From positions 716,840-780,839 of the forward strand of contig QPGO01000016.1 of assembly GCA_008632985.1 (NCBI GenBank): a stretch of 64,000 nt of DNA. The letters are read 5' to 3'. This document shows, in pieces, positions 16,497 to 54,199 of this stretch. The notes below the pieces were generated by a model, which was not told the origin of the DNA, did not search any database, and was given only the letters and a program-made list of their open reading frames with translations. The stretch comes from Psammoneis japonica (taxonomy: Eukaryota). The position numbers and the translations under genes were made by a program. How positions within the stretch are numbered: the stretch's first letter is position 1; each line of letters opens with the position of its first letter.

Positions 16497-17299
16497 CAGA
16501 CGGGATCCAAAAGTCGATTTTTGCAACGCGAAGCATTGTTGAAAGCCTCGAGCTTACCTTCAGACTCTCAGCATCCTCAAATTCACAACAATCATGAACT
16601 GGATAGCGCTTTGAAACGTTTGATTCGCCGTATTCGAACGCATCGTCACTCGTGGACGAGTCCGCGGTGCTCATCCTGCCATTCGATCCTACTGCAAAAT
16701 TCACGTAAAATTCTACGTAGTGTAACTTCCACGTGTCAGCAGGCTAAATAAATCGAAGAAATATTGTCGCTCAAAATTCGACGGTGAATAGCACTATCAT
16801 GGGGACTCGTTCTAGTTGATGAATAAGAAATTCATTCAATTTGGGAGCAGGAGCTTCGAGGTGTGGCCGGATTTTTTGTGAGCTTTTCGAATGAAAAATT
16901 AGGAAAAGCACAAAATCTACAGCGGAAGCAGTATTGTTCTACATACTTGATTTCTCGTTGAACTGGTACTCGCCAAAGATATCGCGCCAGCTGTTGCTGT
17001 AAGTACCTGTATGTACTACGTCTACGTAGGAAAGTACAGATTCCTGCGTTGGAACCACACGAGAGAAACCACACGTTTCGGCGCGCAAAATCCTTATATT
17101 TCTAACCATAAATTTGAATGAAGAATAAAGTAGTATCGAGAATCAGATGTGACACACACACACAGTGCGCTTTCGCGCCAAAATTTGAATTTCAATTTTG
17201 CAATCTCCCCTTGCCCCCTCTTGCAAGACGAGAAGTTAAGTTGTTAGATTACGTGACCAATGAGTCATTGTAAAGAGTGGCTCTTGTTGCAAAGAACAA

Positions 17300-18950
17300 A
17301 CAACGCACATTTCTTCCCAGCCATCTCATGTTGAGAGCTGATCTTGCGTCCAAGCAGCGCCACCTCTCTGGAGGCCCCTTCGCAGGGACCCAATTCTGAG
17401 TGTGGTGGAAACCATCCATTCACACATGTGTGCAGCATGGCATGTCACTGATGCACGCCACAGATGATCTGAATGCACAAACAGCCCTTTGTCTGGCCAC
17501 CTGAGTGTTCTTGGTTTGAATTGTTTTTGATGCGACAATTTGAAAACTGCTGGCAAGCTGCAGCAGAAGAAGAGTGTGTTGTGGCGCTGGTGCTCCCATT
17601 TAAGGAGTTGTCATTCATGGGCTGAACTGTGTGACAATTGCACATTGTGGAGAAGGCATGGCTGCAGTTGCTGACTGATGAACTTGATGATGGAGAAATT
17701 GTCATTGGGTGAGAGTCAGCCGTGCGACATTGTTTCGTTGACATCACCCATCACCAGCGACGACAACGGCGTGGGAGTTCTTTGTGAGTGCGTGTCAGTT
17801 CTTAGAGACAGTGACAGAGCTGATGTTTGTAAAATTTTCATCACTGGAACAATGGCAGGTTCAGGTTCAGAGGATGCAGGCATCTGAGCAAAGCTTGTGT
17901 TTTCTGCTTCTTGCCTCATTGGACTCGCGCCCATTGCAGCAGAAACCGGTCTTTGCTCCTTCTTCTCCCTTCGCCTTCATTTGCAAACAGCCCCATTGTT
18001 CCTCTTTTTTTTTTCTTTGCCATCTTGATGAAACCATTTCTGAGGTTGATGTCACACCTTGCCAAACACCTGCATCAGCTGAGCACTGCCTTGCTCACTC
18101 TGGTTTTCCTGGGCTGGTTTGGGCTGTGTGGGATTGATCCAATTGCTTTTGTGCAATCTTCCACATTCCTTTCCTCTCTTCCTTCAGCCTTGTTGCCAAA
18201 ACCATTTCACATTTGGCGACCTTTTGTTTGCTTTTCTGGCACTTCCGCGCTGCCAACAATTTTGGAGTCTGGCTTCTTTTCACCACACACACAGCAGCAG
18301 GCAGGAAGAATGAGGAGCACACCTTGTCCGATGGTTTTTTCACATTTGTTTTTGTTTCCATGTGCTTTTGCCAGTTGTTCGTCCTGTCCCACCAGTTTGA
18401 TGCAGGTTGTTTCACCACAAAATTGTTTGGCTTGGCAAACAACAGAGCCAAAGTGCAAAAGTCATAAAAGGCTCCTTCTTGTTGGTGAGAACTTTGGGAA
18501 TCATGACATTCTTTTTCCATTCTTGCAAAATGTCAAAGCAAAAATCAAATTTTCAACTCATTGTTGCCCCCGCATGGTTCTCTTCTCTAAATTTTCCCAG
18601 GTGCGGCCACACAAGATTGGCGACCTGCTCCCTTCGCGCAAGCAAGAGAACATGGTTTTGATGTCGTGGTGATGTGATGTTCACTTTGTGAATTTTCACA
18701 TGTTGTCATGTCAACAAATTTTGCATTTGTGCACAAATGCCAACAGCAACAGGAAAAATCCTGAACCATGTCCTGGCAACCATGGGGCGGGAGTTTTCAC
18801 TTGACAACACACACATGCTGGCGCAAGAACATGAACACATCCAACTCAATGCAAGTGATGATGTCATCACCAACATCCCACAGGACCACTTGCAAAGGTG
18901 TGAAGAGAGCCCGGGTCCTCAAAAGTTAATTGTGTTGACACGGATTTTGA
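17300..18950. mobile_element. Degenerate TpA/CpG-depleted repeat relic, family not assigned
   Basis: Near absence of TA, excess TG/CA, broken Cys/His-rich frames. Minus-strand MLHTCV resembles NVHTCVNG of the Harbinger at 49.8 kb (weak). Confidence 0.5.
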
Positions 18951-26908: not shown

Positions 26909-27206
26909 CCATTGTACCTTTAGATTAGAAAAAAGAACTTTTTGTCAATCCATCACCGGCACCATGATTTTCAACGCTAGCCAGCCAATCACATCGGTTT
27001 TTGTTGTTGAAGGAGCTCCGGGTTTACTTTTCATGTAATCTACAGCACCGCATCTTGTATCGATGTGAGTCCCATTGTACCTTTAGATTAAAAAAGAACT
27101 TTTTGTCAATCCATCACCGGCACCATGATTTTCAACGCTAGCCAGCCAATCACATCGGTTTTTGTTGATGTAATCTACAGCACCGCATCTTGTATCTATG
27201 TGAGTC
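26909..27206. repeat. Tandem duplication (26909-27071 / 27072-27206)
   Basis: Both copies run CCATTGTACCTTTAGATT...GTGAGTC; the first carries an extra ~27-bp insert. Confidence 0.9.
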
Positions 27207-30200
27207 ACTCGTCGGAAAAATTGGTGAGTAAAGTCGAGGATAAAACCTTTGGACCGTTCGCTCCATTCAGGGGGGCATGAACAACACTTCAACAATGTCC
27301 AAGGTTTGTGCAAGTTCATATGAAATGAAAGAGAGAAAATGCTTACAAGTCAAATTCGAGTGCCGCACGTAGACCTTGTCGCTTTCTAAACTGAAGCATT
27401 TAGTTTTTATACACATCTAATTAGTCTTGGGCTTTCCCTCGACCTCGTATCCTGGCAATAACGTATCGACTCAGTTCTTGAGAATCGCCAGACGCTCCCC
27501 AAGAAACAAATCCCCCCTACCTGGTAGGGCTACAGTACATACGCTGTAGTCGGATTCATCACCTGGAAGAAGTAGCTTGCGGAACCGGTCTTGGAACTGT
27601 AGATCTTGGTGCAACGTGGTTATTGATCGTCATCTTCGGAGCTTCGCCTTGCTTTCTCGGTACGTGGTAGTGTTTGACAAATTCTCGTCGTTCACGGACA
27701 AGTCCCAAAGATCCAAACATTGTGCACGTAGTGCTTTCAATAAACGCTTTGAATAATCAAGTAATGAAACAAACAGAAGTGCAGACAGCCCTTTATTTGT
27801 TCGGAAGATTAAGCAACAGAGAAATTCTCAGAAGAATCGTGTTCCTCTGCTGGCAGTTCTGTTTTTGTGAGCAGTTGCCAGATACCGGTAGATGATCAAG
27901 ATCGCGCAAACCCCGCATGACATGGGCGAGAAAAATAGCTTTGAAAATGCATCGAAAGAGAGTGGTTACAGCGAAAGCGGTACAAATTCTACGAGGGCTA
28001 GTTGAATAATTATATCTTCTATGGATTCTAATAAGATGAATTTTGACACTGCGACGCAATGAATGTGTATCAGGTGTACAGTCCGGTATGCGTCTGAGTG
28101 AAGCGCAAGTTGACGCAACTCAGGCAGCAGCAGTTTTCTGATTCCACGTCAGCAAAAACGATCACGCAACAATGCGTTGTAGTTTCCGCCGCACTGTACA
28201 CCACTTGAAGAAATGCTGCATGACGAAGCATTTTCTTGAAACTGCCACAGATTTCACCCTCTGGGCAAGTTGCTCAAAAGCTTTCCTGTGTGTGGGTGGG
28301 CAAAAGTGTGTGTGCGGCGTGTCATCGACAATGTTCAGGGTGGTGCAGCAGAGCCCAACACACGCAGAAAGAGCACGTCATGCTGATGTGAGATGTGCTG
28401 CCTTGGTGTGATTGGCAGAACCTCATCGGAACTTGGGCTCACATGAGAAGCAAAGTTGGCTGGCTTCAGGTCAAAACACAAGATCACACTGCCATGTCAT
28501 CCTTTGTGCAAATGAACGCGAGCACCTGTGGCAGCATTGCAGCATCATCTCCAAGTGACGGACGGCTCTGCCAGCTCATCCTCCACACACCATTCCATGT
28601 GTGCTCCTTCCCAGTGCATGCCGCAGCATCAGCCATGCCTTCTTTTCTGTCCAGCCATGCGCCCCCCCACCCCCTGTTTTGGTGGTTTTGTTTTGCGCAC
28701 AGAATGGCAAAAAACATGGGGAGCCATTTTTTGCCAGCTTGGCATGCAAAGCAGCACAGCAGCCACTGGTTTGGCTGCATGATCGCACTGCCAAGTGTGC
28801 AGAGCAACAAGAACCCAAAGTTTTTCTGTGTGTGTGTGCACTCAACATTTGCCACCACTTGCAAACCCTGCAGTCAATCAAATGTGCTCCATGCTGTTTG
28901 AGAACACAAGCTTTGGCAGCTGTGGTGTGGAGCCCACAACAAGACTTTGAGAAATGTCGTTTTTGTCTTGCTGGAAATTGCACATTTTCAAGCCCTTTTT
29001 GCTTAAAAACTCCCTCCACTGTGACAGTGTGCTGAAAGTTCCACAAGGCAAGAGTGTCCACTCCTGCTTTTTTTCACCCCCGCCAGCAGCCAGCTCTCAT
29101 GCGCAGAGTTGTTCTTGGCTGGGGGGTGCGCAGAAATTTTGGAGGCATCTGCTGCTGATGCACCACCTGAGCTCTCATCTACAAACAGTTGCTTTCTCTC
29201 AAATGCAAAATGGTGATTAAACTGGTGCAGGAGCTGCACCCACCTGCCTTCATTTGGTGGCGCCAAAGGCAGGGCATCCAGCCACATGCCATCTGTGCGC
29301 ATGTGGAAGAATCAGCCCACACAGATGTGTTGGCAGGTTGGTGAGTTTAATGAGCAGCAGAAAAAATGAGTGCAGTGCAACTCAAGTCACTCACTCTGGT
29401 CAGCTTGGGGGGGGGGGGGGGGGCATGCACACCAGGGAGTCATTGGACGGAACAGGCTCAGACCCAGCCAGATGTGACGAGAACAAGAAAAAGTGTGCTT
29501 GGGGCACAAGCCCAGAAACCCATCACCATCCTCAGCTGGTGCAACTCCAATGAAGAAAACACACAGTTGAGCCCCTTGAGTTTGGGTTGCAGCACACAAT
29601 GGCTGGCAGAGCTCAAGGAGCTGGGCTGGAATCCTGATGTGTCAGAAGCCTCACCTTGTTCATGTTGGCCACACTGTGGGCCTCGTTGTCTTCTCCAGTG
29701 TGGCTGTTTGGTGAGTTCATGAACCTGGATGTTAGCCACCTGTTTTGTCACATCACAGCACAAGTCAGCATTTCATGGAGCTGTCCTTGTCAAATGGGGT
29801 GGTTGTCACAACAATTGGGAGGGAACAAAGTGATGTCCCTCGCTTGCAGTTGTTTTGTGCCCAACTCATCACCAACTCCAGCACACTGTGGAGTGCTTCA
29901 AAACTTCAACTTTCCTTTTTTGACCAATGAAAGCACTGCATTTTTGAGTGCACAGGTGCATGTGTGCAGCTTGTGTGTGGTGTTGTGCATGAGATTGTGG
30001 GCCAATCACTTTGTGCACTGCTTTTTAAAAGGTCAGAGACTTGGAGGGCAAATGCACAAACATGGCGCAAGGGGGCATGGTGTGCATGTGTGAACAACCA
30101 CACCATTGCACTGGAGGCAATGGCACCCAATCTCACAACACACAAGTTTGCCACTTGCTGAACATTTCTGGCAAAGCTGGCACTGGGTGCCATGGCAGGG

Positions 30201-31726
30201 AGGGGGCATGAGAAGCATTGTTGCACCACTTGTCTGGGGGGAGAGAGGAGCAGCATGTCAGTGACAAATGCAGCAAAAAGAGAACAATGAGAAGATGCAG
30301 GAAAGAGATGTGGTGGTTGCTTTGGAGACATTCTGCAAGAGCTTGTGCATGGACTCTGCAAGTTTCCAAACAAAAACATCCCTGAGAGGAGCCACATGTG
30401 AGTGCATGAGAGAGATTGACATGATGGCAATGGGGGGCACACAAAACATTTTGCAACACAAACTGATGCCAGCAAATGCAGGGTTGGTGAAAAAGGGTGA
30501 GGTGTGCTGGCCAACCAAAAACAAAGGCACAATGATGTGTGCAATGAACTTGAGCACAAACAGCCACCACTGCACAACAAGCAACATGAAAGCCCGCAAA
30601 CAACAGCACATGACAAATTTGAGATCACATCAACAAATTTTCTGTTGCAAAATTGTGCCAGACACATGGGCAGCAGAAAGGGTTGTGATGTGCTGGAGAG
30701 CACCAACAATCACAAAAAGATGGCACTGTGGAGATCAAGTTTTGGAAGGCATGGAAAACATCATGAGCTTGCACTCTCACACTTCTTGCACCACTTTCTG
30801 CCAGTCATTGTCAGAAAAATGCTTGGAAGAACATGATTGAGGGCTGAGTGTGAAGCTGAGCAAGCTTGCAATGGGAAGCAATGCAAGGAGTTTGCTCAGC
30901 TGGCACAACTGGCAAAAACAAGTTTTTTTTGTTTGTGTGTGCAGAAAATAAAAAAAGAGCTGAGGGAGGCTCACAACACACTGGGGGTGAGCTCCAGAGA
31001 CCAAGCACAGCACACCAGAAAAGGGAAACGAGCAAGAAGAAAGCATCGGAGGGTTTGATGAAAAAAGGGCTGGCCAGGTGTGGGGAGATGGGAAAGCAGC
31101 AGGCTGTGGCCAGAAAAAGAGGTGACAACAAAATTTGGTTGTGACAGTTCTGCCAATTGTTTGCAAGCTGCAGAAAGTTTGTCACCTTCAGGAGTGTAGA
31201 ACAGCTGCCAAAAATGACAATGACAGCAACAATTGCTTTGATGCCCCAGGGGCATGTGGGGGACAGGCCGCATCACAGTGCAGGCAGGGCCACACAGCAT
31301 GACACTGCTCCTCAGCATCTCAGAAACAATGAAACAAGAACAAATTAGAGTGCAGCACACACCAATGCAAGCCAGCGCAGCATGTGTTGTGGGGCATCAA
31401 GAGACTGAGCCCACACTGCTGCAAAAATGAGTTGTGTGCAGTGGCCGTGTGAGCATTGTTTTCTGCACAAACATGAGTGTGCTCAGGCAGCCAGGCTGTG
31501 GCCCAAATGATGTGGACAACCCAGCCATTTGGAAGAGAGAAGAGAGAAGAGATTGCCACATGGGAGCCTGTGGCACAACCCGTGTTGCTGTTTGTGACAG
31601 CATGTGCAGATGTGCAGGTCTCTGAATCAGCCAAAACACACTTGCTTCACTCTGGCAGCACAGAGAACCCCTGCATTGTTTGGGGGTGTGCCGGACTCAA
31701 AAAACATTGTCCCCCTCCGAGTGTTG

Positions 31727-34700
31727 GAATGTCAAGATGAGAGACCCAGATGTCACATCATGTCACCTGGATCAATTGAATGAGAAGGAGATGTTGACTC
31801 TGATGTGGTTGGCTGATGTGATCTTTTTCAATGAGATCACAACCATCAACACATTCTTTGCATGTGTTTCATTCTCTCACTCTTTGGAGTGAATCATTTG
31901 CTTTGCACAATTGTCAGTTGGCATCAAGAGGCACTTGTTGCTTTGGCAATTGTGCAGTTTGCACTGATGCCAAGGCAAACCACAGCCATTGTAGACTGCC
32001 GGGGCAAGCGCAACAAGCAGCTCAGGAAACCTTGCAGGATTCCCTTTTGGAGACATGGATTTGGTGCCAGTTCAACATTCACTCCAAAGAGTCAGGAGCG
32101 CTGCACTTGGCACTCATTTGCTTCAAGATTGCTGCCAACAAAAAGACATCAGAACACCTGCACAATGAGTGGCAGAGGAGGTGGCAGGATGAGCTGTCAA
32201 GGCCAAGGACAATGAAAAGGTGAAGGCCAGTGCCAAGAAACACTTTCAGTCTAAGATGAAGTTCTGTCCTTCATCACTGAACAGCTTTTCCTGCAATGTG
32301 ACATTTGAGGAAACCAAAGAAAAGATCACTCACTGCATGCAGAAGGAGTGCAGCCAAGGGTTGCACCTGGTGACATCCACAGAAGAAATGAACCACAAAG
32401 ACTTCATTGGACAGAGGCCCATGTGTGAAGGATCTAAGATTGTTCTGCCAGGTGTGAGCAACCCCAATTGCCAAGAACAACTGATGAAGAAGGCCAACAA
32501 AGAAAAAAGTGTGGATGGACACCCAACACAAGACAGACTTCAATGAATGGCACAAAAAGGCCAAAAAGTTCAAAGAGAACAAGACTGCTGCATTTGCCAA
32601 GCTCCTGGATGACTGCTGTTCAAAACAGATGAAACAAAGACTGCAAGAAGACCCCAACTTCAAGAACACCATCAGAGACAATCAAGCTGCACTGCTGAAA
32701 CCAATGCAAACCCTTGCACTTGACTCTGTGAGAGGTTGACACCCACTCCATGCACTCACAAAGGCATGGTGCACAAGACTTCTTAGAGAACCTGCCAATG
32801 ACAATTGGGGCAAGCCAGTCCATTGCATCAAGTGCCTGAGCCGAACAAGAAACGAAGTTGCTGTGCTGAGTGTGAAAGACCTCTGAATCATCAAGTGATG
32901 TGTGGACACATTGTTTGCAGTGCACCCTGATTTCAAGAGCCATGCCAGAGGTGCAATGACCATGGGTGCAAACACCCAAAGCAGCACTGAAGCTGAGTCA
33001 GCTGGAGTTGACAATGCAGTGACCATGACACCATGGACCAAGTTGTTCACAGAGCACCAAGGACACCCAATTGACACTGACATCCTGCATCAGGAAAACA
33101 AGAGTGCCATCATCCACTGGAGACAAATGGGTGTTGTCAAGAGAGCAAGAAAATGGTCTGGGCTGCTCAACATTGTTTTTTTGCAATGGATCAGATTGAG
33201 AAGGTCAACCCAGGCAGGGTGCAAGTCCAATGGATGACATGTTGGAGGACTTAATTGCCAAGCCACTGCAGGACAAGAAGCTCTGCAAGTTCAAGTGAGC
33301 CATTGTGGGCTGCCAAAGAGAAGGTGAGCATGAAGGGTGCGCAAGCTGTTTGTGATGTCAGACCAGAGTTTGGACACATGTGGGTGAAAGATCCCTGCAC
33401 CCAATGGTTGTGGTGAGCCAAGTGTTCAACAAACCACAAATTTGCTTTCAGATGAACCATGATGTCCATGAGAAGAGTGCCCACCCATCCTGATGATGAC
33501 CCAGGACACGTCAGTGAGGGGACAGAGCCACGTGACACTTGCTTGCAATGGTGGCGCCAAGACATTGTTGGGACAAGTTCAAGAGGCCAATTGAAATGTT
33601 GGAGGAAAGGAGAATGGAAACTGCAAATCAAGATTGCAAGATGGTGGTGGAAAAACACTGCAGACATGATGAGAATGGATTCATGCCAAGGCCTGTGGAT
33701 CCAATTGTCTTGCATGAAATGATCAACATGAGATCATTGATGTTGGAGTTGGAGAAGGATGGAAACAACATCTGGGACCATTTCAACAGTGTGAAAGATG
33801 AGTGCATGGAAGAGCTTGAAGACAAATGGCTGGCACAAGCTGTGGGCAGAGAGGCTTGAAACAGGGCCTGTTGTGTGCAAAGTCTGGAAGAAATGGTCTG
33901 GTGCAGCTCATCAATGTGTGTCTGCTGCTGCACCAATGATTTCCATGTTTGGTGAAGGAAGCACAGTGTTGCATGAGACAATGGAACATGCAAAGGCAGC
34001 ACACAAAGCCAAGGAGGATTGGCAAATCATTGGGACACACACCACAATCCAAGGTTTCAAATGTTGCAATGAGGGTGACAAGGTGGATTGTCCTGACAAG
34101 TGTGCAGTGAGGAGATGACAGCAGGGTTCAGAGGCAATGAGTTTGGCTTGCCCTTGACAAGAAAGACATTGACCTTGCATGGAAATGGTTGCTCACAAGG
34201 GGTTCACATGACTGAGTCATCAAAATGAAATGACACAATGGTGGTTTGGCAACAGACAACTGTGGACGAGTTGTTTGTGACACTTTGAAGTTGGTGTGGT
34301 TTTTCCATCAAAAAGTTGTTAAAGTGAAGCCTGTGCTGAAATGGGCGCTTGTTATGAAATGGAGTTTTGCCATCTGCAGCCCTGGAGAACCAATGAGTGG
34401 GTGTTGGATGCAATCAACAACGTGGGTCAATGCAGTGAGGGGAAGTGCAAGAGAAGGTTTGTCACGTTTGTGTGAAGAGTTTTGTTGATCAAGTTGACAA
34501 CACTGCAAATGAGTTTCATGTGATGCTTCACCTTGAGAGTTGTGGTCCCAACTGGGAATTCATGACATTGTGTGAACTGTTGGACAGCAACAACATTGAC
34601 ACTCCCATCGAATTAGAAGTGATTGTGCCAAGGGGCAATGCTGAGCCCAGTTGTGTGATTGTGAAACCAGCAGACATCAGATCATCAACATTTGAGTGGC

Positions 34701-35056
34701 GTGAGTGAGTCAGAATGTCAAGACAAGAGACCTGGATGTCATGCTGTGTGACCCAGATCAATTGAATGAGAAGGATGTTGATCATGGAGTGGTGTCGGCT
34801 GATGTGATCTTCTTTGATGAGATCACAACCGTGAGCACATTCTTTGCATGCATTTTGTTCTTCTCGCTCTCTGGAGTGAATCATTTGGTTTGCATGACTC
34901 CTGTCAGTTGGCATCAAGAGGCACCTGTCATTTTGGCAGTCGCGCAGTTTGCGCTGATGCCAAGGAAAGCCACAGCCATTGCAGACTGCCAAGACAAGTG
35001 TGACGAGCAACTCTCAGACAGGGGGGAGACATTGCAGGATTCCCTTTTGGAGACAT
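31727..35056 (+). repeat. Dispersed direct repeat: copy A 31727-32056, copy B 34713-35056
   Basis: Alignable from GAATGTCAAGA to GGATTCCCTTTTGGAGACAT; differences are dominated by transitions. Confidence 0.9.
32200..33320 (+). pseudogene. Internally deleted Ty1/Copia (CoDi-like) relic: gag fragment joined to RT/RNase H end
   Basis: gag-like FKENKTAAFAKLLDDCCSKQMKQRLQEDPNF..IRD; RNase H IIK*CVDTLFAVHPDFKSH, SSTEAE..GVD, WTKLF, ILHQENKSAI. Confidence 0.85.
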
Positions 35057-35682
35057 TGACTTGCCGGCTCAACACTGTGGCAATGGGCAGAAGAGATGGC
35101 TGCAAAAGAAGAGAAAAATGGGAGGATGGAAAAGTTTAACAAAACCCAGCTGGTGCAAGGTTGCTGTGTTTGATGAGATTGAGAACAGAGACAAAGTGTT
35201 CCGGCAGAGCAGGGTGGAAGAGGGCAAGCTGAGAAAAAGAGCTGGCCGCCAATTTTGCTGTGCTGAAAGAACTCTGTACGGTAGAGAGAGAGCGGGGTGG
35301 AAGAGGCTGGGGGTCTGCAGCGAGCCCAGCACTGGGGAGACAGTGGTCTGGCTGCAAGTTATTGTTCATCATCATGATTGACTCAAGGATTGACACCTCA
35401 GCCCCAAAAGTTTCAGTCGTGAGGTTGGGTTGCGGGAACAAAACGAAGCATTATCGTGCGTGCGTGACCACGTCACAAGAAAACACTCGGGACCGACGCA
35501 AGAAGCCATCGTGTCTTCTCTTCAGATCGCCTCATATTGTAACATCATCTCTTGGAAAACCCTCGACGCACATCACTGTACAGATATACTCGTTACAAAT
35601 CGCACTCCCTGGTGCCAGTCTTCCTTGCATACGAAAATTACGTTGATCATAGCTGTTGCTCTCTTCAGAAAGCGAAAATACG

Positions 35683-36252
35683 ATGGGAAATTCTTCATCG
35701 TCTTCACTCCCAGCACTTCAAACAGCAGCGAGCTGTGACACTGCCAAATTCATGGGAACATGGTTTGTAATTGGAGTCAAGCCAACCTTGTTAGAAAAGA
35801 CATGTTCCAACGCAGTAGAGCGATACTCCATGACGGAAGGGAAAGGACACGACATTGATATTGACTTTACATTCAACACAGACAAGCCACTCGAGTCTCG
35901 CGTTAAATCAATGCCACAGAAGGGGTGGGTCCAAGGAGACAAGAAGAATAGCGCCAACTGGAAAGTGTCGCCTTCGTGGCCATTGAAACTTCCGTATCTC
36001 ATTTTAGATGTGAAAGAGGACGAGTACGTCGTGATCGGATATCCGTCCAGGAGTTACTGTTGGATCATGGGACGAAAACCTCAAATGCCGGACGAAAAGT
36101 ACAACAAACTCCTAGAAGACTTGCAAGAAAAGCATCAGTATGATCTTAATGGGTTGAGAAAGGTGCCGCAAGTGTGGACAAAACAAGAGCGAGAAAAGCG
36201 GGGACTGACGTCAAAGGAAATCCCCGACAGCATGTTGACAACGTTGAATTAA
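35683..36252 (+). CDS. Lipocalin (Blc/ApoD-like), possibly N-myristoylated
   Basis: KFMGTWFVI (SCR1), PYLILD, YCWIMGRKP (SCR3); MGNSSS start. Confidence 0.9.
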   Translation: MGNSSSSSLPALQTAASCDTAKFMGTWFVIGVKPTLLEKTCSNAVERYSMTEGKGHDIDIDFTFNTDKPLESRVKSMPQKGWVQGDKKNSANWKVSPSWPLKLPYLILDVKEDEYVVIGYPSRSYCWIMGRKPQMPDEKYNKLLEDLQEKHQYDLNGLRKVPQVWTKQEREKRGLTSKEIPDSMLTTLN

Positions 36253-36493: not shown

Positions 36494-38146
36494 CTAGGTT
36501 TTGTGGCACAAATAAGTCGCCAAGGCTGCCGCGACGACCACAAAAAATGATGATGAACAACGAGCAAGGATTTCTTCCACCACCATTAGCCACCACAGAT
36601 GAATCCTACCAACCATAATCACTTCATCGGTTGCATCAGGACACAGTTTGTCAATCCACGCATTGAATCGGCTACTCTGGCTTGACCGAGTTGTGTGTTG
36701 CACATGAATCAATGCTTCAGCTCCTCCCGGGCCGTTGCTGCCTTTGACTACAAATCCTTCCAGTTTTGAATTTTCGGATATCCCCGCATCCTTTTGAAAG
36801 TTCGCATAAAATGACTTGGCTATGGAGAGATGCGGTTCTTGACACGGACAAGATTTCCCGAAGTTATTTGTCGGGTAAGGACAAATGTCCCTCTTGAAAA
36901 AGGAGTAAAAGTTCTTCGATCCGCTCGCGGATCGTCCCAAATCTGTCACCCAAAACTTGGTGTCTGCATGATCAAAAGCAAACAATGCAAGATTGGTCAA
37001 ACCCATGAGGCTCTGGAGATCACGTCCACGGTGTTGGGGGTGTACCATGATGAGTCCCATGTGAAGACATGGGACTTGCTTTTGATACTGCCATTGAATA
37101 GAAACATTGAAGCCACAGGGAACACTACTTCCTTTTGGATACACCAAACAGATCAGCTTGTCGCGGTAGCTCTCGCCACGAAATATGGGATAGGGCAACA
37201 AGTCGCCTATGGATTCTCGACACACTGTAGCAAGCTGCAGCGTCAATGACTTAATGATAGTAGGATCGGTTGGACGAACATATCGACGGAAGCTGTAATC
37301 GCTGTTCAACGACAACAAAGTGCCATCCTGAAGTTTGGAGCTTCCCCGCCAGATACGGTGCCACAAAACATGGGCGCAAAAGTCAAGCACAAAGTTAGAT
37401 TTGGTGCGTTTCTTGGATAATGACCCATTCGACAGCTTGGGCGGCTGTGACAGCTTTGTCCCGTTCTGTTTCTGACTGACATTACAGGGATAGAAAATCT
37501 CCATGAATGGATCTTCAAATATCTTGGCCACAGTCCAGTATCCAAGGGCAATCCATCCAGCCAAGTACAGTGCCGTCGGAGAAAGAATCCTCATGGAATA
37601 CCCGACATGGGCTACCGCGGCTCCAACGTACATGGGATGCGACATGCAATTGTAGGGGAAGGCCGTGACGAGCGTAAGCTGGATAAATCCAAAGTACTCG
37701 GGGTAGTACGTGTTGAGATGCACGTGAAAGAACCCTGTGAAATTGAGCGTTGAGCCCGAAATGTAGAGCACAGTTCCAATCGTCTCGATAACTTGACGAG
37801 GAAGAATTGTCACTGGGTAGTAGTATTGATTGCGCGGTGTTTCGGCCATGGCAAGAGCAAAGACGTGTTCTCGATAAATCGAAAATGCCAACACGTACAC
37901 GGCAAAGCAAACTTGCGCCACGCGACGATGACCACAAAAAAGTCTCGAAAGGAGACGGTGTCGATACTCCAAACGCGAAAATACCACCCAGGAAAATGGA
38001 GCCCAAATGCTGGCAAAGACGGCTTTTTGAACACTTGCAATCTCAAGCTGCGTTGCCAACAGGAAGTGGCTTGCGACTACCATCGTGGAGAAGTAGAGCA
38101 CGAGCTGCACCCAAAGACTGGGGTCTCGAGCAACAACGACCATCAT
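36494..38146 (-). CDS. Phospholipid methyltransferase (PEMT/Opi3-like) fused to a GNAT-like domain
   Basis: Multi-TM N-half with TYYPEYFG..VTAFPYNCMSHPMYVG..FEDPFMEIFY; C-half LHMGLIMVHPQHRGRDLQ; one continuous ORF; start uncertain. Confidence 0.75.
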   Translation of the reverse strand: MMVVVARDPSLWVQLVLYFSTMVVASHFLLATQLEIASVQKAVFASIWAPFSWVVFSRLEYRHRLLSRLFCGHRRVAQVCFAVYVLAFSIYREHVFALAMAETPRNQYYYPVTILPRQVIETIGTVLYISGSTLNFTGFFHVHLNTYYPEYFGFIQLTLVTAFPYNCMSHPMYVGAAVAHVGYSMRILSPTALYLAGWIALGYWTVAKIFEDPFMEIFYPCNVSQKQNGTKLSQPPKLSNGSLSKKRTKSNFVLDFCAHVLWHRIWRGSSKLQDGTLLSLNSDYSFRRYVRPTDPTIIKSLTLQLATVCRESIGDLLPYPIFRGESYRDKLICLVYPKGSSVPCGFNVSIQWQYQKQVPCLHMGLIMVHPQHRGRDLQSLMGLTNLALFAFDHADTKFWVTDLGRSASGSKNFYSFFKRDICPYPTNNFGKSCPCQEPHLSIAKSFYANFQKDAGISENSKLEGFVVKGSNGPGGAEALIHVQHTTRSSQSSRFNAWIDKLCPDATDEVIMVGRIHLWWLMVVEEILARCSSSFFVVVAAALATYLCHKT

Positions 38147-45907: not shown

Positions 45908-46569
45908 TACGATTTTGATCCCAGCCTTCCTGACCTGAAGCAATCGAGAGTGAAAAAGAGACGACTGCGAATCAGAGCCATTCTCTACGGAAGGTGGTCA
46001 AGCCGCTCCGGTTGAAAAGATCCAGGTCGGCAATTCACAAGTCTCCAAGTGCAGCACAGAAACTTTGTCTTTGCTGGTTTCCATGGTTTTCCATCCGCGT
46101 TACAGGATCTAAATACATTGTTTAGTTGTTGGCACTCTGCCAGCTGCTACCGTAGGGTATCCAACGTATGAGATTGGTGCAAGGATCTCTTCCAACCGAT
46201 CCGTTGGATAGAGAACCGCGATGGGAGGTAGATCTTTGACAGTGTGAATGTTCTTATGCACCAGAAAACGCCTTTCTAGTGTGCGTAGCTCGGCTATCTT
46301 CAAATCAACATACCTATGGGCAGATCCGCGTCTCGTGACGAGCAATGAGGCGAGCGTACCAACTTCAAATTATCTATGCGGGGTAGACGAAGCAGTAGCA
46401 TTTTTAGCATCGTACAGTATCATCAATGCGTGTGCTTGCAGGTAGACACCTAATTTTAACTCATAGCTACTAGCACAGTCTGTCAACATAGAGTTATGGT
46501 GATGATTATCTTTTCAAAGATTGGATGCTCCGAAAATATGAATGCGAGGTTGGACACTTACTTCCTCGC

Positions 46570-47900
46570 TCATCGCAAACGCAAGCCTTCCAATGCGATG
46601 GCCATGTCATTTTCAGTCTGAAAAGGGATTGGATCAATCTCATCATCATTGGTGCCACCAAATTGCAATTCAAAATCACGAATCTGAACCTTAAAAGCAG
46701 GTACTTTGGATAAAACGCTGCGAACCTGCTTTCCTCGTTTGCGGCCTTTCACGTCTGAATGCCAGGGGAATCCCTCCTCCTCTGGGACTTTCACAAGGAT
46801 GTCTGCTTCACATTGAAAGGAGTTTGCATCATGCTCAACCTGCACAATGAGAGCCCTTCCTCCTGCCTGAGTACCATCCACCTTGACTTTGTCATTGGAC
46901 CAATTGAAGTGCATTCCACAGCTGTCAAGGTCGCACCCATCAAATGCAGTCGTTTCTTCGTCCAGGATGCACACTGATTTCATGTTATCACGCCTGAAGA
47001 GAGTGACTCGGAGGCACGGTCCATCTCTGCGACAGGATGGAGCACCATTTGCAATGCATTCTATGATGCCATCTTCAACAACCACATGCTCATCACAGAA
47101 CCAACAGTCGTCCGACAAAGGGTCATCCCCGCTAAATCCTGTTGATGATGCATGGTGCGGATTTTTTACCGTGAATTCCACCCCGGTGTCAGGCGCATGT
47201 TGCCGCTGCCCTAACAGGCCTCCAACTTGTCAATCAACCCACAAGCAATTGTGCACAGTGTTGAAACGATGTCATTTGGCCTGTTTTTGCATCTGCATTG
47301 TTGATGGAAGATCGTCTTTTTTGTTTGTGCGGGGTTTTGCGTGCTTTGGCTCGACGGCAATGGTGGAGCGGCTCTGCAAATGACAAAATCGGATTGAAGG
47401 TCCTGTGTCATGGCACTGTCGAGCTCAGGGGATGACAGAGATTCAGCACATGGTGTGTTGTCATTGAAATGAGTGGTTTTGGGCAGTTGGCGGCTGAACT
47501 CTTGCCGTCATTGTCGCGAAGCATGGCATTCCACCACAACGTGAAGATCCATGTCGAAATTGAATCAGGTTGTGAGTGCAATTGTGTTTGTGCAGAAGCA
47601 GTGCTACGTCGCATGGCCCAAAACGAATGACACAGTGTTTCCCCGTGGACATTTGTCGCTTTTGCCGGAGGAAGCATTGCTGCAGCATGCAGCACGGCAC
47701 GGCACTGTGCCAAATAAAAATGCGGTGCACGCAGGTGTGGCACAAATGCCGGCACCGTACCCACAGAGTCGATCCCACATTGAGACCCACCTGAGATCAC
47801 CAGCCATTAAAATTTCTCTGTGCACATGCAATGCAACTTTTCATGCATGGACATGAAAGATCTCATTGAACTTGTCACAAAAAAATTCTTCCCTCTTTTG
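46570..47900 (-). pseudogene. TpA-depleted broken ORF of unknown origin
   Basis: 203-aa frame (46570-47181) with protein-like composition but no Tyr; further fragments upstream. Confidence 0.4.
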
Positions 47901-48277
47901 CAAATCCGGTTGGTTCATGAGTTTCAGCACGCTGACCAAAATGTCCGACGAGCCGATGCGGACAGGCAGGTGGTGATTTAAGACCCACGTAGAAATGTGC
48001 GTGATTTCAGCAGAGTGACAGATTGCACCTGTTTGCTGTTTGCTGTTTGCTGTTCACTGTTGGCTTCGATTTTTTTAGTTGAAGCGCTGACATCACAAAA
48101 TGGAATTTTGCTTTTTACGAATTCTCAACTCGCGTCCTGTTCCTTTTGTTTGATCAAACTTCAGTCATTTTGGTCAGATGCTCATTTTTAGATTCCTTCT
48201 TCTCGACATGAATGTGGTGTGCCATTTTCATCTCGCAGCTCATTCTGTGTTTCTTGTTCCACTCTCATCGAGCTGCA

Positions 48278-49867
48278 ATGGCGATGCTTGTCAATCCCTT
48301 TACAGGCAAGAGACGTTGCAAGCCCACACGATGGACAACACAGAAAAGGAGGAAGATGTTTGCAATTAATGTCAACGATCAACTGCTTTGTCGAGAGGCA
48401 ATGTCAGTGGCCATGTGTGCTCTGGAGAACACGCAAGAGCATCTAAACTCCACGATCATGTTGGTTGCACAAAGATTGCAGCTCCTCATCCAAAACAACA
48501 TGGAAATGTCACCCCAAATTGCTCAAATGGACCTTTGTCTGCAATTGTGTGTCGGCTCATGTCAAACTTGCATGCTGCATTTCTGCAACGCGGTGCAGGT
48601 TGATGCAGAGGTCGGAGACCTGCAAGACGATGAACTCGAAACTGCTCCGTACAAGGAAATCTGTCGATTCACAAGAATTGACAGCTTCCAAGATGACAAC
48701 GAGGCAAATGATTTTACCACCTTTTCCAAGGTTGAGCTCCAAGAAATGTTGGATCCACTGGATCTTCCAGTGATTGTTCATGTGCCCCATCCTGGGAACC
48801 AAGGCTGCTTGCATTTTCATCGCGAGAGCTTGCTGATCCATTCACTTGTCAAGTGCAAACGACGGGGGACACACAAAGATTTGGCCAACAATGGTGTCTC
48901 TGGGGAAGCGACGAAATGGTCATGTGGTTTCAAGCATTTCGTGCGGCATTTTGATTCGAGATGTGGACACCTGCTTGGACCAGACGGACTCCGACTGTGG
49001 ATGCCACACTTTCCGGATTTTGCCGAGGCGATTTGTCAGGAAGTTGGAAGAGATGTCACGTTGATTGACCCCGAGACGGAAGAGGAACATTTTTGTCCTG
49101 GAGTTCACTGTGAACCCGGCTCTTTTGTGGCACGCGGCTCCACCGATTGCAAAGACCATGCAGTTGCAACACCATGAACGGGCCCTGATGGAAACTGTGA
49201 GGGAAGCATGCGTTGACCGGGACATGATGAGGCTCAACGTTGTGTGCACACTGGGAAGTCTAAAAAGCATGCTCTGAAAATGTTCAATTTGTTCCTTCCA
49301 AATGGAATTCATGCGTGTGCTTGTGGGCCCATGTCATCCAGACCGTGAGTGCATCCGAGCTCCAATGTCATTCTGCTGCGTTGCGTTGCATGTGTCTAAA
49401 ACATTCTTGCCATTCCGTGTCACTCCAGGCATGACAGCAAAGCGCTTGCAAGGAGTCAAATTGACACTTTCCTTCATGTTGTTCAAGAGGCGTGCCCGGA
49501 ACTACAAGGAAAGGTGCGTGCTTTTTACGGAGACTCAGCCTTCAAAGGTGTCTGGTGCTGCATTCGTGCCAGACACGAGCCCACGAGATTAGTTCCTGTT
49601 CTTCCTCTTTGTCAAGTTCAAGAAAATGCAGCAATGAAGTGATGCCGTCAATCTGTGGAGTGGGGGTGTGCGGGTGAGGTCAACATCTGTGCACTGATGA
49701 ATCGCAAGGAACAGTTCAAGCTCGAACAAGACCACGATTTTGTCCTTGCGCAGCTTCGTGCAGGTCTTCTTCTCCACAATGTCCACACATGCGTGAATGG
49801 ATCACAGACAGGAAATGGACTGGGCTTGCGTGCCCCAGAGCTAGAAGACCACTTGCCAGCTGGATGA
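48278..49867 (+). pseudogene. DDE_Tnp_4 / HARBI1-like transposase, inactivated
   Basis: TDCK, QRCVHTGKSKKHALK..PNG..GP, HD, YGDSAF, N..MK*CRQSVEWG, HTCVNGSQ, LEDHL; several in-frame TGA. Confidence 0.85.
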
Positions 49868-50084
49868 ATTTTATAATTTTTAGAATAAAATAGATTCCAC
49901 TTTAGTTTTGACATGACAGATCTGACATGACACATCGTGTTAATGTGTCGAGCCTAACTGCACTCTCTAGAATCGATGCCTGTGCACACATGCACTGCAG
50001 GCAGGTTCACAGATGTACATCTGCATGGTGCTTTGTAGCTGCCACTCTCTAGAGTCTAATTGCCACCCCCGAATCACACTCTGT

Positions 50085-50950
50085 CTAGTTGCCGCCCATG
50101 TCATGCCACGTGTTCTCCAGTTCCTTGATTCTCCGGTCATGTCTCTCATGGTCAACATCATCTCCACAGTCCAGAGCATCTTTGCGTGCCTTGCAAAGGG
50201 AGGAAAGCATTGCAGCATTGTGCTTGTGTTTCCTGGACTCCTCCAAGGCATTGTTCTGGGAGGCAAGGAGTTCCATGGTCCTCTCAAACAAGTTGTTGAC
50301 ACGGGCAGAGTTGTCATGCATGTGCTCACCATCAACATCCAATGGAGACGTTTCCGATCCAGGTGCAGATGCTCGGGCCTCAGAAGGCGGAGTGGGGTTG
50401 CTCTTGCGTTTCTTGTCATTGGTGGTGGCGAATGGGCTGCTCTCTGGATCTCTGACAACAGGTGACTTGGAAGTGGCTGAGCCCATGAAATTGACGTTGC
50501 GCATCACTTGGTCGCTGAACTGCAAATTAGTTGAGTTGACAGTGCCAGCAGGGTGGAGGTTCCAACGCGCCTCGCTCGCTTTGTCCGTGTGCTCTTGTTG
50601 AATTTTCCTCGCACATTCTTCATCCTTGCCTGCTTGGGACTTCTTTTCAGTGTCTTGGCATTTCTCCCAAAGCACACATCCCCTTTTTTCATTGTTTGCA
50701 TCCACGAAGTCCTTCTGAGCAAACTCGTCCTCACACTTCTTTGCAAGGTGCGGCAGAATGCCTTTCTCCATCACGAACTTGCGTTTCGTCAAAGCAGTGC
50801 GATTCGCAGTTTTTGACACCTGCAACCCATGCTTTGCTGCAATGCCATTGCTGTCTGCACACAACAGACGGCCTGCTTTGTGCCAAGGATTCTGTGGATG
50901 CTTGGCATCGGATGCAATGGCACTGCAAGCGTGCACTGTTCGACAATCAC
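50085..50950 (-). pseudogene. Harbinger accessory (ORF2) protein relic
   Basis: Convergent with the transposase inside the IRs; charged, coiled-coil C-terminus; 0 Tyr in the 388-aa frame 50085-51251. Confidence 0.55.
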
Positions 50951-51773
50951 AAGCATGTCGGAAAGCAACTGCCGACAAGTTGGGGAGAAAAAAAGATGAG
51001 ACCAAAGTGGTTGGGAGCTGAAAAAATGACACACAAAGTGGAGAAGAGCAACGCCAGAAAACTTGCCTCCTCACATCTGCCATCTGAGACAAGCTTGTCT
51101 GTGTTTGGGAATCGTTGCGCTTTGCGAGGAGCAGCAGCGGCATTCGGCCGAGCGGGGGCGGCGGGTTGATCCCCGATTGATGCCAGCACACCGCCATCGA
51201 CCATGTGACGATGTGCAGCTGGTGCACTGGCACTCGAATGCATGCTGTCACTCATGGTTAGTGTGGAAGTGCTTGATGTCCTGTGTGCTGAAGGCAGGCG
51301 AGTGTGTGGTGTGTGGTGTTTTTCAGACAAGAGACGATGGCGCACCTCGAAGGAATCTCAAAGTGCAGCGAAGCAAGTGGCGAGCTGGTGCAAAAAATGC
51401 GTTCATTTCTACGGGGAGGAGCTGTTTGCTAAGTCGGCTCAAATCGGGCACGAACACAATTGACAACCTGGATCTATGGAAGCCATTGACCATCCTGCGT
51501 CACACCATTTTCTTGGACGTCATTTGCGTGACGCGCGTGTGACGTGGCGAGTGCAATGGCAAATGGCAAACAGCACAATCTGTCACTCTAGTGCTGGAGA
51601 TCAGACGCGCCCCTCAAGGGCCAAGGATTTTTCTGGGGGGTAAAAAGGGCGGCAATCGAATGCTCTCATCGTGCTGTTTCGAACGCGATGCCTCTCGACT
51701 TTTTTCGACCAACAGAAAATTCTACGCATTTTTGTACCACGCCCCACGCGGGTCTTAATTTGTGCCGGGTCTT

Positions 51774-53818: not shown

Positions 53819-54199
53819 GTTGGATCGCCACAATTTTGTACCTCGGACTACTTTTCGGCATGAAGAGTGTATAACATGAAGAAGGACGCTCGTTGGCATC
53901 TATCCATATATGCATGATGTGTTATAATAGACCTTACGCCCAGATGGCGTGAAAAGAAAAGGACGATTTCGGTTCTTGGACTGCTTACCACCAGCTTGCA
54001 ACATTTCTTATTGTAGCTCATAGCTTTAGAAATACAAACATCTCTGTCTAGCTGGAGAGAGCCGTCATCGAATCACGGCTGCTCGGAATCAAACTGTTTT
54101 TTGGTTTCCTTGTTGGCTCTGCTTGTTGATTGCTTTCACTGATTCAAAACTCATTGTCGCCATGAACGACATTCCGAACGCCCACTCATTCGGAAATCG

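Follow-up and report, generated by a model that had tools for sequence, protein, structure and literature searches.

The window, the whole 64-kb stretch of DNA analysed here, contains a 7-kb island almost devoid of TpA, in which a fragment of a Ty1/copia-type pol gene lies between two direct repeats. The features are as follows.

28200..35130, no strand: TpA-free island, with 17 TA and 58 CG in 6.9 kb (observed/expected ratio, o/e, 0.04 for TpA, 0.14 for CpG, 1.94 for TpG and 1.86 for CpA)
31718..32077, + strand: direct repeat copy A, multicopy to judge from contig depth and possibly an LTR
32724..33321, + strand: Ty1/copia pol C terminus, the whole recognisable remnant (by tblastn and by blastn after YR collapse)
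34702..35074, + strand: direct repeat copy B, 78% identical to copy A in the raw sequence and 86% after YR collapse

The pol remnant begins just ~650 bp past copy A and ends 1.4 kb ahead of copy B. Contig depth is raised at 31.7–33.7 and 34.7–35.3 kb, and the rest of the island is single-copy at ≥90% likeness, a test that is blind to decayed copies.

The remnant pairs with residues 1511–1709 of a 1,710-residue relative, P0009, and only the last ~200 codons of pol survive. A protein search with the stretch returned 11 proteins at E ≤ 0.001 out of 44 candidates, two of them RVT_2 polyproteins of 1,710 and 1,720 residues; P0009 (E = 4e-12) and P0011 (E = 2e-6) both carry PF07727, and tblastn with P0009 matched residues 1511–1644 at E = 1e-26. 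The RVT_2 domain of the relatives lies directly upstream of the matching part, at residues 1231–1471. When all frames of 28–36 kb were searched with Pfam, the sole match was a flanking lipocalin, and RVT_2 was absent because the copy is a fragment, by truncation or decay. Likewise, no reverse transcriptase, integrase, protease or gag was left in the element according to Pfam and to tblastn with full-length relatives, which finds the C terminus only. Collapsing YR dinucleotides before blastn raised the bit score against relatives from 91 to 207, and a comparison of all five islands of the window with 80 loci in this way gave a match at 32724–33321 alone, the few others being no better than a control region.

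By translation and alignment to relatives, 32887..33115 (+) is the central part of what remains of the RNase H domain. The translation of 32887–33117 (+), IIK*CVDTLFAVHPDFKSHARGAMTMGANTQSSTEAESAGVDNAVTMTPWTKLFTEHQGHPIDTDILHQENKSAIIH, contains both strings in which the sequence-only reading had recognized a Copia RNase H motif. Our comparison set comprised 80 related elements from metagenomes, aligned by codon; their DNA identity to the fragment is only about 60–70%, and contexts at third codon positions were for this reason inferred. The consensus of the protein relatives, V[VI]KWYVDASFAVHPDFKSHTG and NI[LV]YQDNKSAIL, is near the one that the sequence-only reading gave for diatom Copia elements. 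The diatom Ty1/copia elements CoDi, a candidate clade for this element, have in common with it a Copia-type pol with the RNase H motifs WYVDASFAVHPDFKSHTG and YQDNKSAI of that reading; the text of the article on CoDi (PMC2806351) does not contain RIP, dinucleotide, hypermut, deamination or degenerate, and uses 'transitions' a single time, with an ecological meaning. Built from 43 sequences, a structural model of the domain in the relatives (pLDDT 87.6; an earlier one from nine sequences, at 35.7, was unusable) resembles RNase H from human, archaeal and retroviral sources (Foldseek E = 2e-4 to 1e-3, probability 1.0), and a profile search of PDB sequences with the domain gave no matches. The motif-bearing domain of the relatives is therefore modelled as an RNase H fold and, judging by its sequence, the stretch comes from the RNase H portion of a Ty1/copia-type retrotransposon that is now dead.

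Besides replacements at conserved codons, the remnant carries a single stop, in-frame deletions at two places and four indels that shift the frame.

32815..32817, 33031–33033 and 33114–33116, + strand: Leu>Pro, CTA>CCA, T>C at TpA
32833..32835, + strand: Tyr>Cys, TAC>TGC, the first of five conserved Tyr codons ruined at TpA
32899–32901, + strand: conserved Tyr codon lost at TpA, now TGT
33064–33066, + strand: conserved Tyr codon lost at TpA, now CAC
33088–33090, + strand: conserved Tyr codon lost at TpA, now CAT
33174–33176, + strand: conserved Tyr codon lost at TpA, now TGT
32998–33000, + strand: Leu>Ser, TTA>TCA, T>C at TpA
32896..32898, + strand: TGA stop replacing Trp (TGG in 80/80 relatives), a G>A change at neither CpG nor TpA
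33094..33096, + strand: Asp>Glu, a GAC>GAA transversion in the DNKSAI motif (Asp in 76/79 relatives)
32970..32971, + strand: 36-nt deletion relative to relatives
after 32782, + strand: 84-nt deletion relative to relatives
33111 (+2), 33134 (+4), after 33173 (−4) and after 33224 (−1), + strand: further indels relative to relatives

The Asp replaced at 33094..33096 is a putative catalytic residue of RNase H.

The sequence-only reading had used such codons to give mutation a direction, TA>TG/CA plus CG>TG/CA, and the relatives bear out most of its examples. At 32899 (TAT>TGT, Tyr>Cys) they have Tyr in 54, His in 16, Trp in 9 and Cys in 1 of 80; this is the KWY site, at which His is a native alternative, found in some intact elements, and the Cys of the fragment is nearly unique. 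At 33088 (TAT>CAT, Tyr>His) they have Tyr in 65, Phe in 5, His in 4 and Cys in 2 of 79. Intact relatives thus mostly do not carry Cys or His natively, and the five alignable conserved Tyr columns are Tyr in 54–72 of 75–80 elements. Among the CpG examples, Ala>Thr at 32908 (GAC GCA>GAC ACA; Ala in 67/80, Asp encoded by GAC in 45/80) and Gly>Arg at 32947 (GGA>AGA following C; Gly in 79/80) agree with the alignment, as does the assignment of the Trp>stop change at 32896 (TGG>TGA) to neither class. Two examples stood in part. The Thr>Ala change after CAT at 32944 is confirmed (Thr in 77/80), but its origin at a TpA that spanned the two codons is plausible rather than shown, the His being CAT in 29/80 and CAC in 51/80; similarly, the Ser>Leu change at 32911 is present, but TCG, its one-step ancestor by TCG>TTG, occurs in just 6/80 relatives and TCA in 30/80.

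Polarization of the fragment against its relatives revealed a spectrum concentrated at TpA and CpG. All six conserved TpA are lost in the fragment, each now TpG or CpA, versus 17/319 in 48 intact-like relatives (Fisher, 6e-8). Under strict polarization, using columns conserved in ≥80% of 31 non-redundant intact-like relatives, the six losses are three A>G and three T>C, and outside TpA the same columns show A>G at 0/30 and T>C at 1/11 positions. A>G is therefore enriched at TpA, as had been proposed (6/6 vs 0/30; Fisher, 6.5e-7). No A preceded by a purine became G (0/25 positions), and conserved TpG or CpA was altered at only 1/13. With the conservation threshold at 60%, A>G (7/49) and T>C (5/19) also appear outside TpA, and general decay therefore exists too. 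At the codon level, 32 changes were inferred in 30 altered conserved codons, namely 12 at TpA, 8 at CpG, 7 other transitions and 5 transversions, so that TpA and CpG hold 20/32 changes vs 20% of positions (binomial, 2e-7). The 12 TpA changes are even between strands (read along the sense strand, six are T>C and six A>G), and all five alignable conserved Tyr codons have become Cys or His (TGC, TGT, CAC, CAT and TGT). There are 0–1 conserved CpG columns, and the evidence for CpG loss therefore consists of the eight codon-level changes (5 G>A, 3 C>T) and ten sites at which one repeat copy has CG and the other TG or CA; with the CpG o/e of the island, these match CpG>TpG/CpA of the methyl-CpG type on both strands. 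The region polarized in this way spans ~600 bp only. Over the remaining 6.3 kb of this island, and throughout the four others, we assume an ancestral state with the composition of flanks or intact elements.

Dinucleotide composition extends the same pattern over the whole island, where about 96% of TpA is lost. YR dinucleotides make up 0.2455 of the island and 0.2422 of the flanks; TA and CG together lost 0.086, TG and CA gained 0.089, and AA, TT, AT and G+C are unchanged (AA o/e 1.12 vs 1.17; G+C 0.485 vs 0.476 in the flanks), for which reason GC-biased gene conversion was rejected. TG (0.118) and CA (0.117) are equally frequent, indicating strand symmetry. The island borders are sharp, and the CpG-poor core, at about 28800–34800, is narrower than the surrounding TpA-free span. 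Four further islands in the window have TpA o/e of 0.04–0.15 with CpG at 0.36–0.67, and at 63001–64000 TpA is down to 0.04–0.12 despite a CpG o/e of 0.82. The genome-like flanks have a TpA o/e of 0.57; outside the islands, 10.5 kb of non-ORF DNA has TpA at 0.73 and CpG at 1.03, and coding DNA is lower in TpA, at 0.51. The four other islands contain no gene or repeat recognizable by Pfam (0 families on 99 ORFs) or word search; a 321-residue ORF in the island at 46.6–51.6 kb gave 409 candidates in a word-based homology search, none at E ≤ 0.001, and Pfam on 41 ORFs, including the minus strand of the main island, gave two chance-level matches. Self-comparison of the window found no repeats common to islands besides the 31.7/34.7-kb pair. 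We assume that the other islands are transposon relics as well.

The loss of TpA depends on the flanking bases. Among TA surviving in the islands, 51/84 are YTAR and 5/84 RTAY, compared with 261/1,628 and 498/1,628 in the flanks. Survival rises from RTAY (0–8%) through YTAY and RTAR (2–18%) to YTAR (20–77%), in each of the five islands and with either baseline. Among TA-derived products, YTGY exceeds RTGR by 2–4 to 1, an asymmetry that was not reproduced in short metagenome copies; within the Copia fragment, the T-A-Y>T-G-Y rule is followed by 3 to 2 only, over five asymmetric TpA sites. TpA and CpG losses show unlike flank preferences. TpA loss is thus separate from CpG decay, TpA being gone where CpG persists and over a wider span, with other flank preferences. 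CpG decay fails as an account of the whole pattern, since 12/32 changes are at TpA and some islands keep CpG.

Related copies differ at the same dinucleotides. Repeat copies A and B show a single TA-vs-CA site, and this pair alone does not show TpA loss after duplication. Two metagenome copies that are 88.5% alike (L028 and L060) differ at 57/231 YR sites vs 30/562 other positions; the YR differences are 19 TA vs TG/CA, 11 CG vs TG/CA and 27 TG/CA swaps, and 13 TA are common to both copies, with 19 in one only. Conserved TpA is lost at 5/7 and 3/4 sites in L028 and L060, respectively, and conserved Tyr at 5/7 and 3/4. Among the sequencing runs searched, the stretch was present in one sample only, and no RNA run was listed as containing it. 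The k-mer contigs of that run, X1, which may be the source sample itself, hold 0.98 of sampled 31-letter words, with an island depth of 54–72; contigs across the unique flanks depart from the window at five island positions, whereas about 3 kb of flank is identical. Of these five differences, four lie inside YR (a TG/CA swap and single CA/CG, TA/TG and TG/CG differences), which we count in favour of change in situ.

Several known systems share parts of this pattern. Fungal RIP (RID/DIM-2 dependent) likewise produces regional, both-strand, dinucleotide-specific transitions with sharp edges, leaves missense changes and stops in transposons as well as unrecognizable copies, and is visible through dinucleotide indices. 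However, RIP acts mainly by C>T at CpA and raises TpA, whereas here A:T>G:C occurs at TpA and G+C is not lowered; the TpA o/e of 0.04, CpA and TpG at about 1.9 and the polarized TA>TG/CA changes are the reverse of what fungal-type RIP leaves. RIP is also tied to duplicated DNA and to a sexual stage. Diatom DNMT5a methylates transposons (PMC9998398, whose text contains neither 'deamination' nor 'CpG depletion'). CpG decay in methylated transposons resembles the CpG>TpG/CpA half of the pattern but cannot remove TpA, and here the TpA-free span exceeds the CpG-poor core and TpA is gone where CpG is still 0.67–0.82. Polymerase eta errs at WA motifs in immunoglobulin hypermutation, giving A>G at TA secondarily to the processing of deaminated cytosine. 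It also hits AA and is inefficient, unlike the near-complete loss of TpA with AA intact seen here. Adenosine deaminases of the TadA/ADAT2 type, from which adenine base editors are derived, act on U-A-C-G in the tRNA anticodon loop. They read one strand and target A between a 5′ T/U and a 3′ pyrimidine, as here, but their natural substrate is tRNA, and we know of no natural eukaryotic DNA adenine deaminase.

Other origins of the TpA loss differ widely in plausibility. A family that natively avoids TA, whether by codon usage, TA-targeting nucleases or TA-site transposons, is scarcely credible, having nothing in its favour except the depletion itself. The intact relatives have normal TpA (o/e 0.65–0.85), and the loss is therefore derived; as Tyr, moreover, cannot be encoded without TA, native codon usage is excluded. 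Together with this ratio, the replacement of conserved Tyr, Leu and Thr by damaging residues refutes native composition or selection for the Copia fragment, in agreement with the sequence-only reading, which had called the loss derived and damaging; the stop, the in-frame deletions and the frameshifting indels also count against it. We give little more credence to modified bases misread by the base-caller and fixed in the consensus. Heavily modified DNA can yield systematic consensus errors, and the only run containing the stretch may be the assembly's own source, but the X1 contigs cover the island at good depth with just five differing sites, the near-even TG/CA split of sites and the indels are not expected of such errors, and unrelated metagenome assemblies carry the same signature. 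Editing of element RNA before integration is very unlikely. ADAR A-to-I hyperediting of retroelement or viral RNA, which prefers a 5′ U/T neighbour, becomes fixed as A>G in new copies through reverse transcription, and this element is indeed a retrotransposon with A>G beside a 5′ T. Editing of the sense RNA, however, predicts A>G only, whereas T>C and A>G are equally numerous (six each) and TG equals CA in the island, so the change is not confined to one strand; in addition, the preferred 3′ neighbour is a pyrimidine rather than G, the depletion spans 7 kb, of which Copia makes up just 0.6 kb, plus four other islands with non-Copia DNA, and the differences found inside one sample show the same type of change.

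There are two further alternatives. Under a genome-wide mutation equilibrium, TpA and CpG would be hypermutable everywhere, with islands as old unconstrained DNA and genes keeping TA and CG by selection. The flanks, already at a TpA o/e of 0.57, and the islands, in which Pfam detects no function, would fit, yet non-ORF DNA off the islands retains TpA and CpG, its TpA lying above that of coding DNA, and the island edges are sharp; we regard an equilibrium as improbable. Passive decay, in which a chromatin-linked modified T or A at TpA (for example, oxidized thymine or methylated adenine) miscodes at a raised rate and erodes TpA gradually with no dedicated mutator enzyme, deserves more weight, although we still consider it unlikely. 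It would run parallel to CpG decay within the same islands, and both the graded state of L028 and L060, with shared and single-copy TA, and the same-sample variant sites, which suggest ongoing change, speak for it. Against it, nearly all TpA is lost while CpG is still 0.67–0.82, the strong single-strand trinucleotide rule must then belong to the modifying enzyme, and we know of no TpA modification of such a kind in organisms of this sort.

On balance, the best explanation is probably a dead Copia fragment in an island hit by CpG decay and by local TpA-directed transitions. The data demonstrate the direction, dinucleotide specificity, strand symmetry, locality and flank preference of the change; that TpA changed in situ on DNA, in a process aimed at silenced or repeated DNA in the manner of a genome defence, we infer from them. 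Two context-specific transition processes would have struck the chromosomal DNA of the 7-kb island on both strands once the sequence was in place. One would be CpG>TpG/CpA, by which methylated cytosine ordinarily decays where repeats are silenced. The other would convert TpA to TpG or CpA (A:T>G:C), fastest at 5′-T-A-Y > T-G-Y (R-T-A > R-C-A on the other strand); it would be faster or more thorough than the first, limited to discrete islands and ruinous to coding through Tyr>Cys/His, Leu>Pro/Ser, Thr>Ala and Asn>Asp. As a guess at the agent, we favour a reader of single-strand trinucleotides, for example a TadA/ADAT-like enzyme that deaminates adenine in DNA, and place a miscoding modified T or A second. 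More speculatively, and with appreciable doubt, we suggest a 'reverse RIP' in this host and at least one other from sediment metagenomes, in which a genome-defence mutator would turn chromosomal A into G at 5′-T-A-Y-3′, whichever strand bears the site, wherever DNA is silenced or repeated. It would quickly erase every Tyr and many Leu, Ile, Thr and Asn codons of transposons ahead of much CpG decay, and its agent would be a DNA adenine deaminase occurring in nature or a base modifier with the equivalent specificity for TpA.

To our knowledge, context-specific hypermutation of repeats has so far run by C>T, whether in RIP, in the decay of methyl-CpG or in editing by APOBEC, and DNA adenine deamination is known to us from laboratory-evolved base editors only. 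A search of the open-access literature yielded no account of TpA-directed hypermutation of repeats. Our reading of the pattern is a mutator that has not been described before, operates at the level of DNA, is directed at TpA and strikes silenced repeats in addition to ordinary CpG decay. If this is true, it would account for relics that evade similarity searches, 0.6 of 7 kb being still recognizable here, and collapsing YR dinucleotides before alignment regains similarity both between repeat copies and with relatives. It would also give a composition index for such relics, with TpA and CpG low, TpG and CpA at about 2 and G+C unchanged. The RNase H fragment fixes the polarity of the whole phenomenon. 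A regional A:T>G:C change at TpA only, with a trinucleotide rule, would then amount to a second chemistry of transposon inactivation and would point to an enzyme found in nature, or a base modification, that targets A or T in DNA.

Translation of 32887–33117 (+) exactly reproduced the peptide given in the sequence-only reading. Relatives were sought by a word-seeded search among the longer entries of a large protein collection, and 11 of 44 candidates matched at E ≤ 0.001. Two of these are polyproteins of 1,710 and 1,720 amino acids with a Copia-type reverse transcriptase (RVT_2) that ends ~40 residues upstream of the matching part. With those relatives as tblastn queries, the sole match in the window was residues 1511–1709 of the 1,710-residue protein (P0009), at 32746–33310; DNA comparison with the four YR dinucleotides (CA, CG, TA and TG) collapsed widened it to 32724–33321. 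No other retroelement piece was recognisable on either strand within the surrounding 8 kb. For the relatives' domain, a structure modelled from 43 sequences (pLDDT 87.6) matched experimentally solved RNase H folds, and the label 'RNase H' therefore holds. The gene copy is broken: it has a TGA at a codon that is Trp in 80 of 80 relatives, deletions of 84 nt and 36 nt relative to them, and further indels (+2, +4, −4 and −1).

Next, the direction of mutation was established against 80 related loci taken from metagenome contigs. The in-frame pol C terminus was cut from each and codon-aligned, and the window DNA was then added. Intact relatives have an observed/expected (o/e) ratio of 0.65–0.85 for TpA and about 0.9–1.0 for CpG. 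The test used 31 non-redundant sequences from the 48 intact-like relatives, at columns with at least 80% agreement whose neighbouring column was equally conserved. All six conserved TpA are gone from the window, three by A>G and three by T>C, compared with A>G at 0 of 30 and T>C at 1 of 11 positions outside TpA (Fisher, 6.5 × 10−7). Enrichment of A>G at TpA, set beforehand as the test, was therefore found. In a leave-one-out control, the 48 intact-like relatives showed TG or CA at 17 of 319 conserved TpA instances, against 6 of 6 in the window (6 × 10−8). Conserved TpG/CpA was altered in the window at 1 of 13 sites. At 60% conservation, non-TpA changes show up (A>G, 7/49; T>C, 5/19). CpG offered practically no conserved columns (0–1), and the polarized sequence amounts to 0.6 kb in one window.

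The codons tell of the same changes. Seven alignment columns are at least 60% Tyr, and at the five that are reliably aligned the window has TGC, TGT, CAC, CAT and TGT. Column 37 falls outside the reliable alignment; at column 820 the window reads CAA next to a 1-nt deletion, and no single transition accounts for it. Among 90 conserved amino-acid columns, 60 are the same in the window and 30 differ, for which 32 nucleotide changes were inferred at the codon level:

At TpA: 12 of 32 (6 T>C, 6 A>G)
At CpG: 8 of 32 (5 G>A, 3 C>T)
Other transitions: 7 of 32 (4 G>A, 3 T>C)
Transversions: 5 of 32

Because TpA and CpG together occupy some 20% of the positions of intact relatives, 20 of 32 changes is far beyond expectation (2 × 10−7). 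Some details of the earlier reading need amending: Tyr is indeed the norm at the sites in question, but 16 of 80 relatives natively carry His at the KWY site, and the ancestral codons proposed for S>L (TCG, 6/80) and for the His-Thr boundary (CAT, 29/80) are minority codons. Overall, the observation is real and its interpretation right.

The fragment lies in a 6.9-kb island (28200–35130) with 17 TA and 58 CG. Island o/e values are 0.04 (TpA), 0.14 (CpG), 1.94 (TpG) and 1.86 (CpA), compared with 0.57, 1.01, 1.18 and 1.17 in the flanks. Transitions preserve the purine/pyrimidine pattern, and the YR share is 0.2455 in the island and 0.2422 in the flanks. The TA+CG deficit (0.086) equals the TG+CA excess (0.089), and AA, TT, AT and G+C are the same as in the flanks; this balance rules out a general AT>GC drive. 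TA ends abruptly at about 28200 and is back at about 35137–35277; CG is sparse only from about 28430–28800 and restored by about 34830–35200. GCGC holds 14 of the 49 CpG surviving in 28501–35000. Just left of the island, a TpA-rich intergenic stretch (o/e 1.16) carries a tandem duplication of ~160 bp at 26909–27206, with 81-nt cores 99% identical. To the right lie two host genes, and the TpA-free zone stops about 400 bp short of the first:

35653–36252 (+), lipocalin-like ORF, directly right of the island
36497–38146 (−), PEMT-domain ORF

Four further islands show the same TpA loss with a much smaller CpG loss (36–67% of expected CpG kept):

17280–18920, TpA o/e 0.04, CpG o/e 0.36
46560–51560, TpA o/e 0.15, CpG o/e 0.67
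54050–55220, TpA o/e 0.07, CpG o/e 0.36
61000–64000, TpA o/e 0.04, CpG o/e 0.42, continuing past the window end

The clearest 'TpA only' case is 63001–64000, with 4 TA and 58 CG in 1 kb (TpA o/e 0.04–0.12, CpG 0.82). The 99 ORFs of these four islands gave no Pfam matches, and the islands showed no likeness to one another or to Copia loci. The 10.5 kb outside islands and in no long open frame have o/e values of 0.73 (TpA) and 1.03 (CpG), indicating that the depletion is not general to this genome's unconstrained DNA.

Within the dead gene, T>C equals A>G on the sense strand (6 and 6), and TG frequency equals CA in the main island, which disfavours an edit made on the copied RNA or on a single cDNA strand. 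The island also holds two copies of a repeat:

31718–32077, copy A of a multicopy repeat
34702–35074, copy B of the same repeat

Contig depth is 200–600 at 31676–32343 and 34682–35349 compared with about 60 elsewhere, and many contigs join or leave there, indicating that the repeat is multicopy in the genome. The copies are 78% identical, or 86% with YR collapsed. Of their 77 common YR sites, 12 are TG/CA swaps, 10 pair CG with TG or CA, and one pairs TA with CA; the swaps require an ancestral CG or TA, the two being indistinguishable, that decayed separately in each copy. Long k-mer contigs from X1, a sequencing run that contains the stretch and is possibly the source sample, hence not independent, bridge the unique flanks and agree with the island sequence, at depth 54–72, except at five sites: a TG/CA swap, a CA/CG, a TA/TG and a TG/CG difference, and a transversion. 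In the ~3 kb next to the island they match the window throughout. The five sites are probably differences between alleles that arose by the same type of mutation, and as such would hint at change in place.

TA survival depends on both neighbours. The five islands retain 84 TA, 51 of them YTAR and 5 RTAY, compared with 261 and 498 of 1,628 in the flanks. Whether scaled to the window flanks or to 38 intact relatives, survival in every island rises from RTAY (0–8%) through YTAY/RTAR (2–18%) to YTAR (20–77%). After subtraction of the new TG expected from lost CG, TA-derived products of the asymmetric class favour YTGY over RTGR by about 2–4 to 1 in every island. On the assumed ancestral composition, this points to T-A-Y > T-G-Y (R-T-A > R-C-A on the other strand) as the preferred event; the Copia fragment, too small a sample, has three sites for this rule and two against. 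CpG survival is ordered otherwise, RCGY being kept best, the opposite of the TpA rule and one more sign of two processes.

Two further Copia copies, of another family and 88.5% alike, come from sediment metagenome assemblies and show TpA and CpG decay:

L028:2132–3159, related Copia copy
L060:1–1024, related Copia copy

TpA o/e is 0.28 in L028 and 0.35 in L060; conserved TpA is absent at 5/7 and 3/4 sites, and conserved Tyr is lost at 5/7 and 3/4. The pair differ at 57 of 231 YR sites (19 TA against TG/CA, 11 CG against TG/CA and 27 swaps) compared with 30 of 562 other positions. YTAR is kept better than RTAY (0.62 versus 0.28 and 1.44 versus 0.16; the ratio spans 0.5–2.0 among 38 intact loci), and the YTGY-over-RTGR asymmetry does not recur in these short sequences. 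The process thus reaches beyond the genome of the window. Several short 'hypothetical proteins' among the related proteins P0001–P0010 belong to one Copia family, 87–92% alike; Y>C, Y>H and R>C/H/Q replacements distinguish members at conserved sites, and these proteins may likewise represent copies in partial decay.

The TpA loss is derived, damaging, dinucleotide-specific, strand-symmetric, local and separable from CpG loss. It probably took place on chromosomal DNA, in situ, with silenced or repeated DNA as the likely target. Known processes fit in part: repeat-induced point mutation (RIP) works in the same manner, but its defining chemistry is not shared and is mirrored here, and methyl-CpG decay accounts for just one half of what is seen. 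ADAR-type editing is contradicted by the strand symmetry and the 3′ neighbour, and polymerase-eta-type WA errors by the untouched AA. TpA loss appears to be completed sooner than CpG decay, an order that an active mutator would fit better than slow chemical decay. TadA/ADAT-type adenosine deaminases act in a U-A-C context, and by its likeness to the single-strand T-A-Y rule our guess at the agent would be an enzyme of this type; the main alternative would be that T or A at TpA is modified in a way that causes miscoding.

Searches of open-access literature yielded no description of TpA-directed hypermutation of repeats. Turning CA, CG, TA and TG into one symbol before blastn offers an easy means of detecting such relics: with it the top bit score to relatives rose from 91 to 207, and identity within the repeat pair from 78% to 86%. 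The mutation pattern, whose polarity the Copia fragment anchors, appears to be new.
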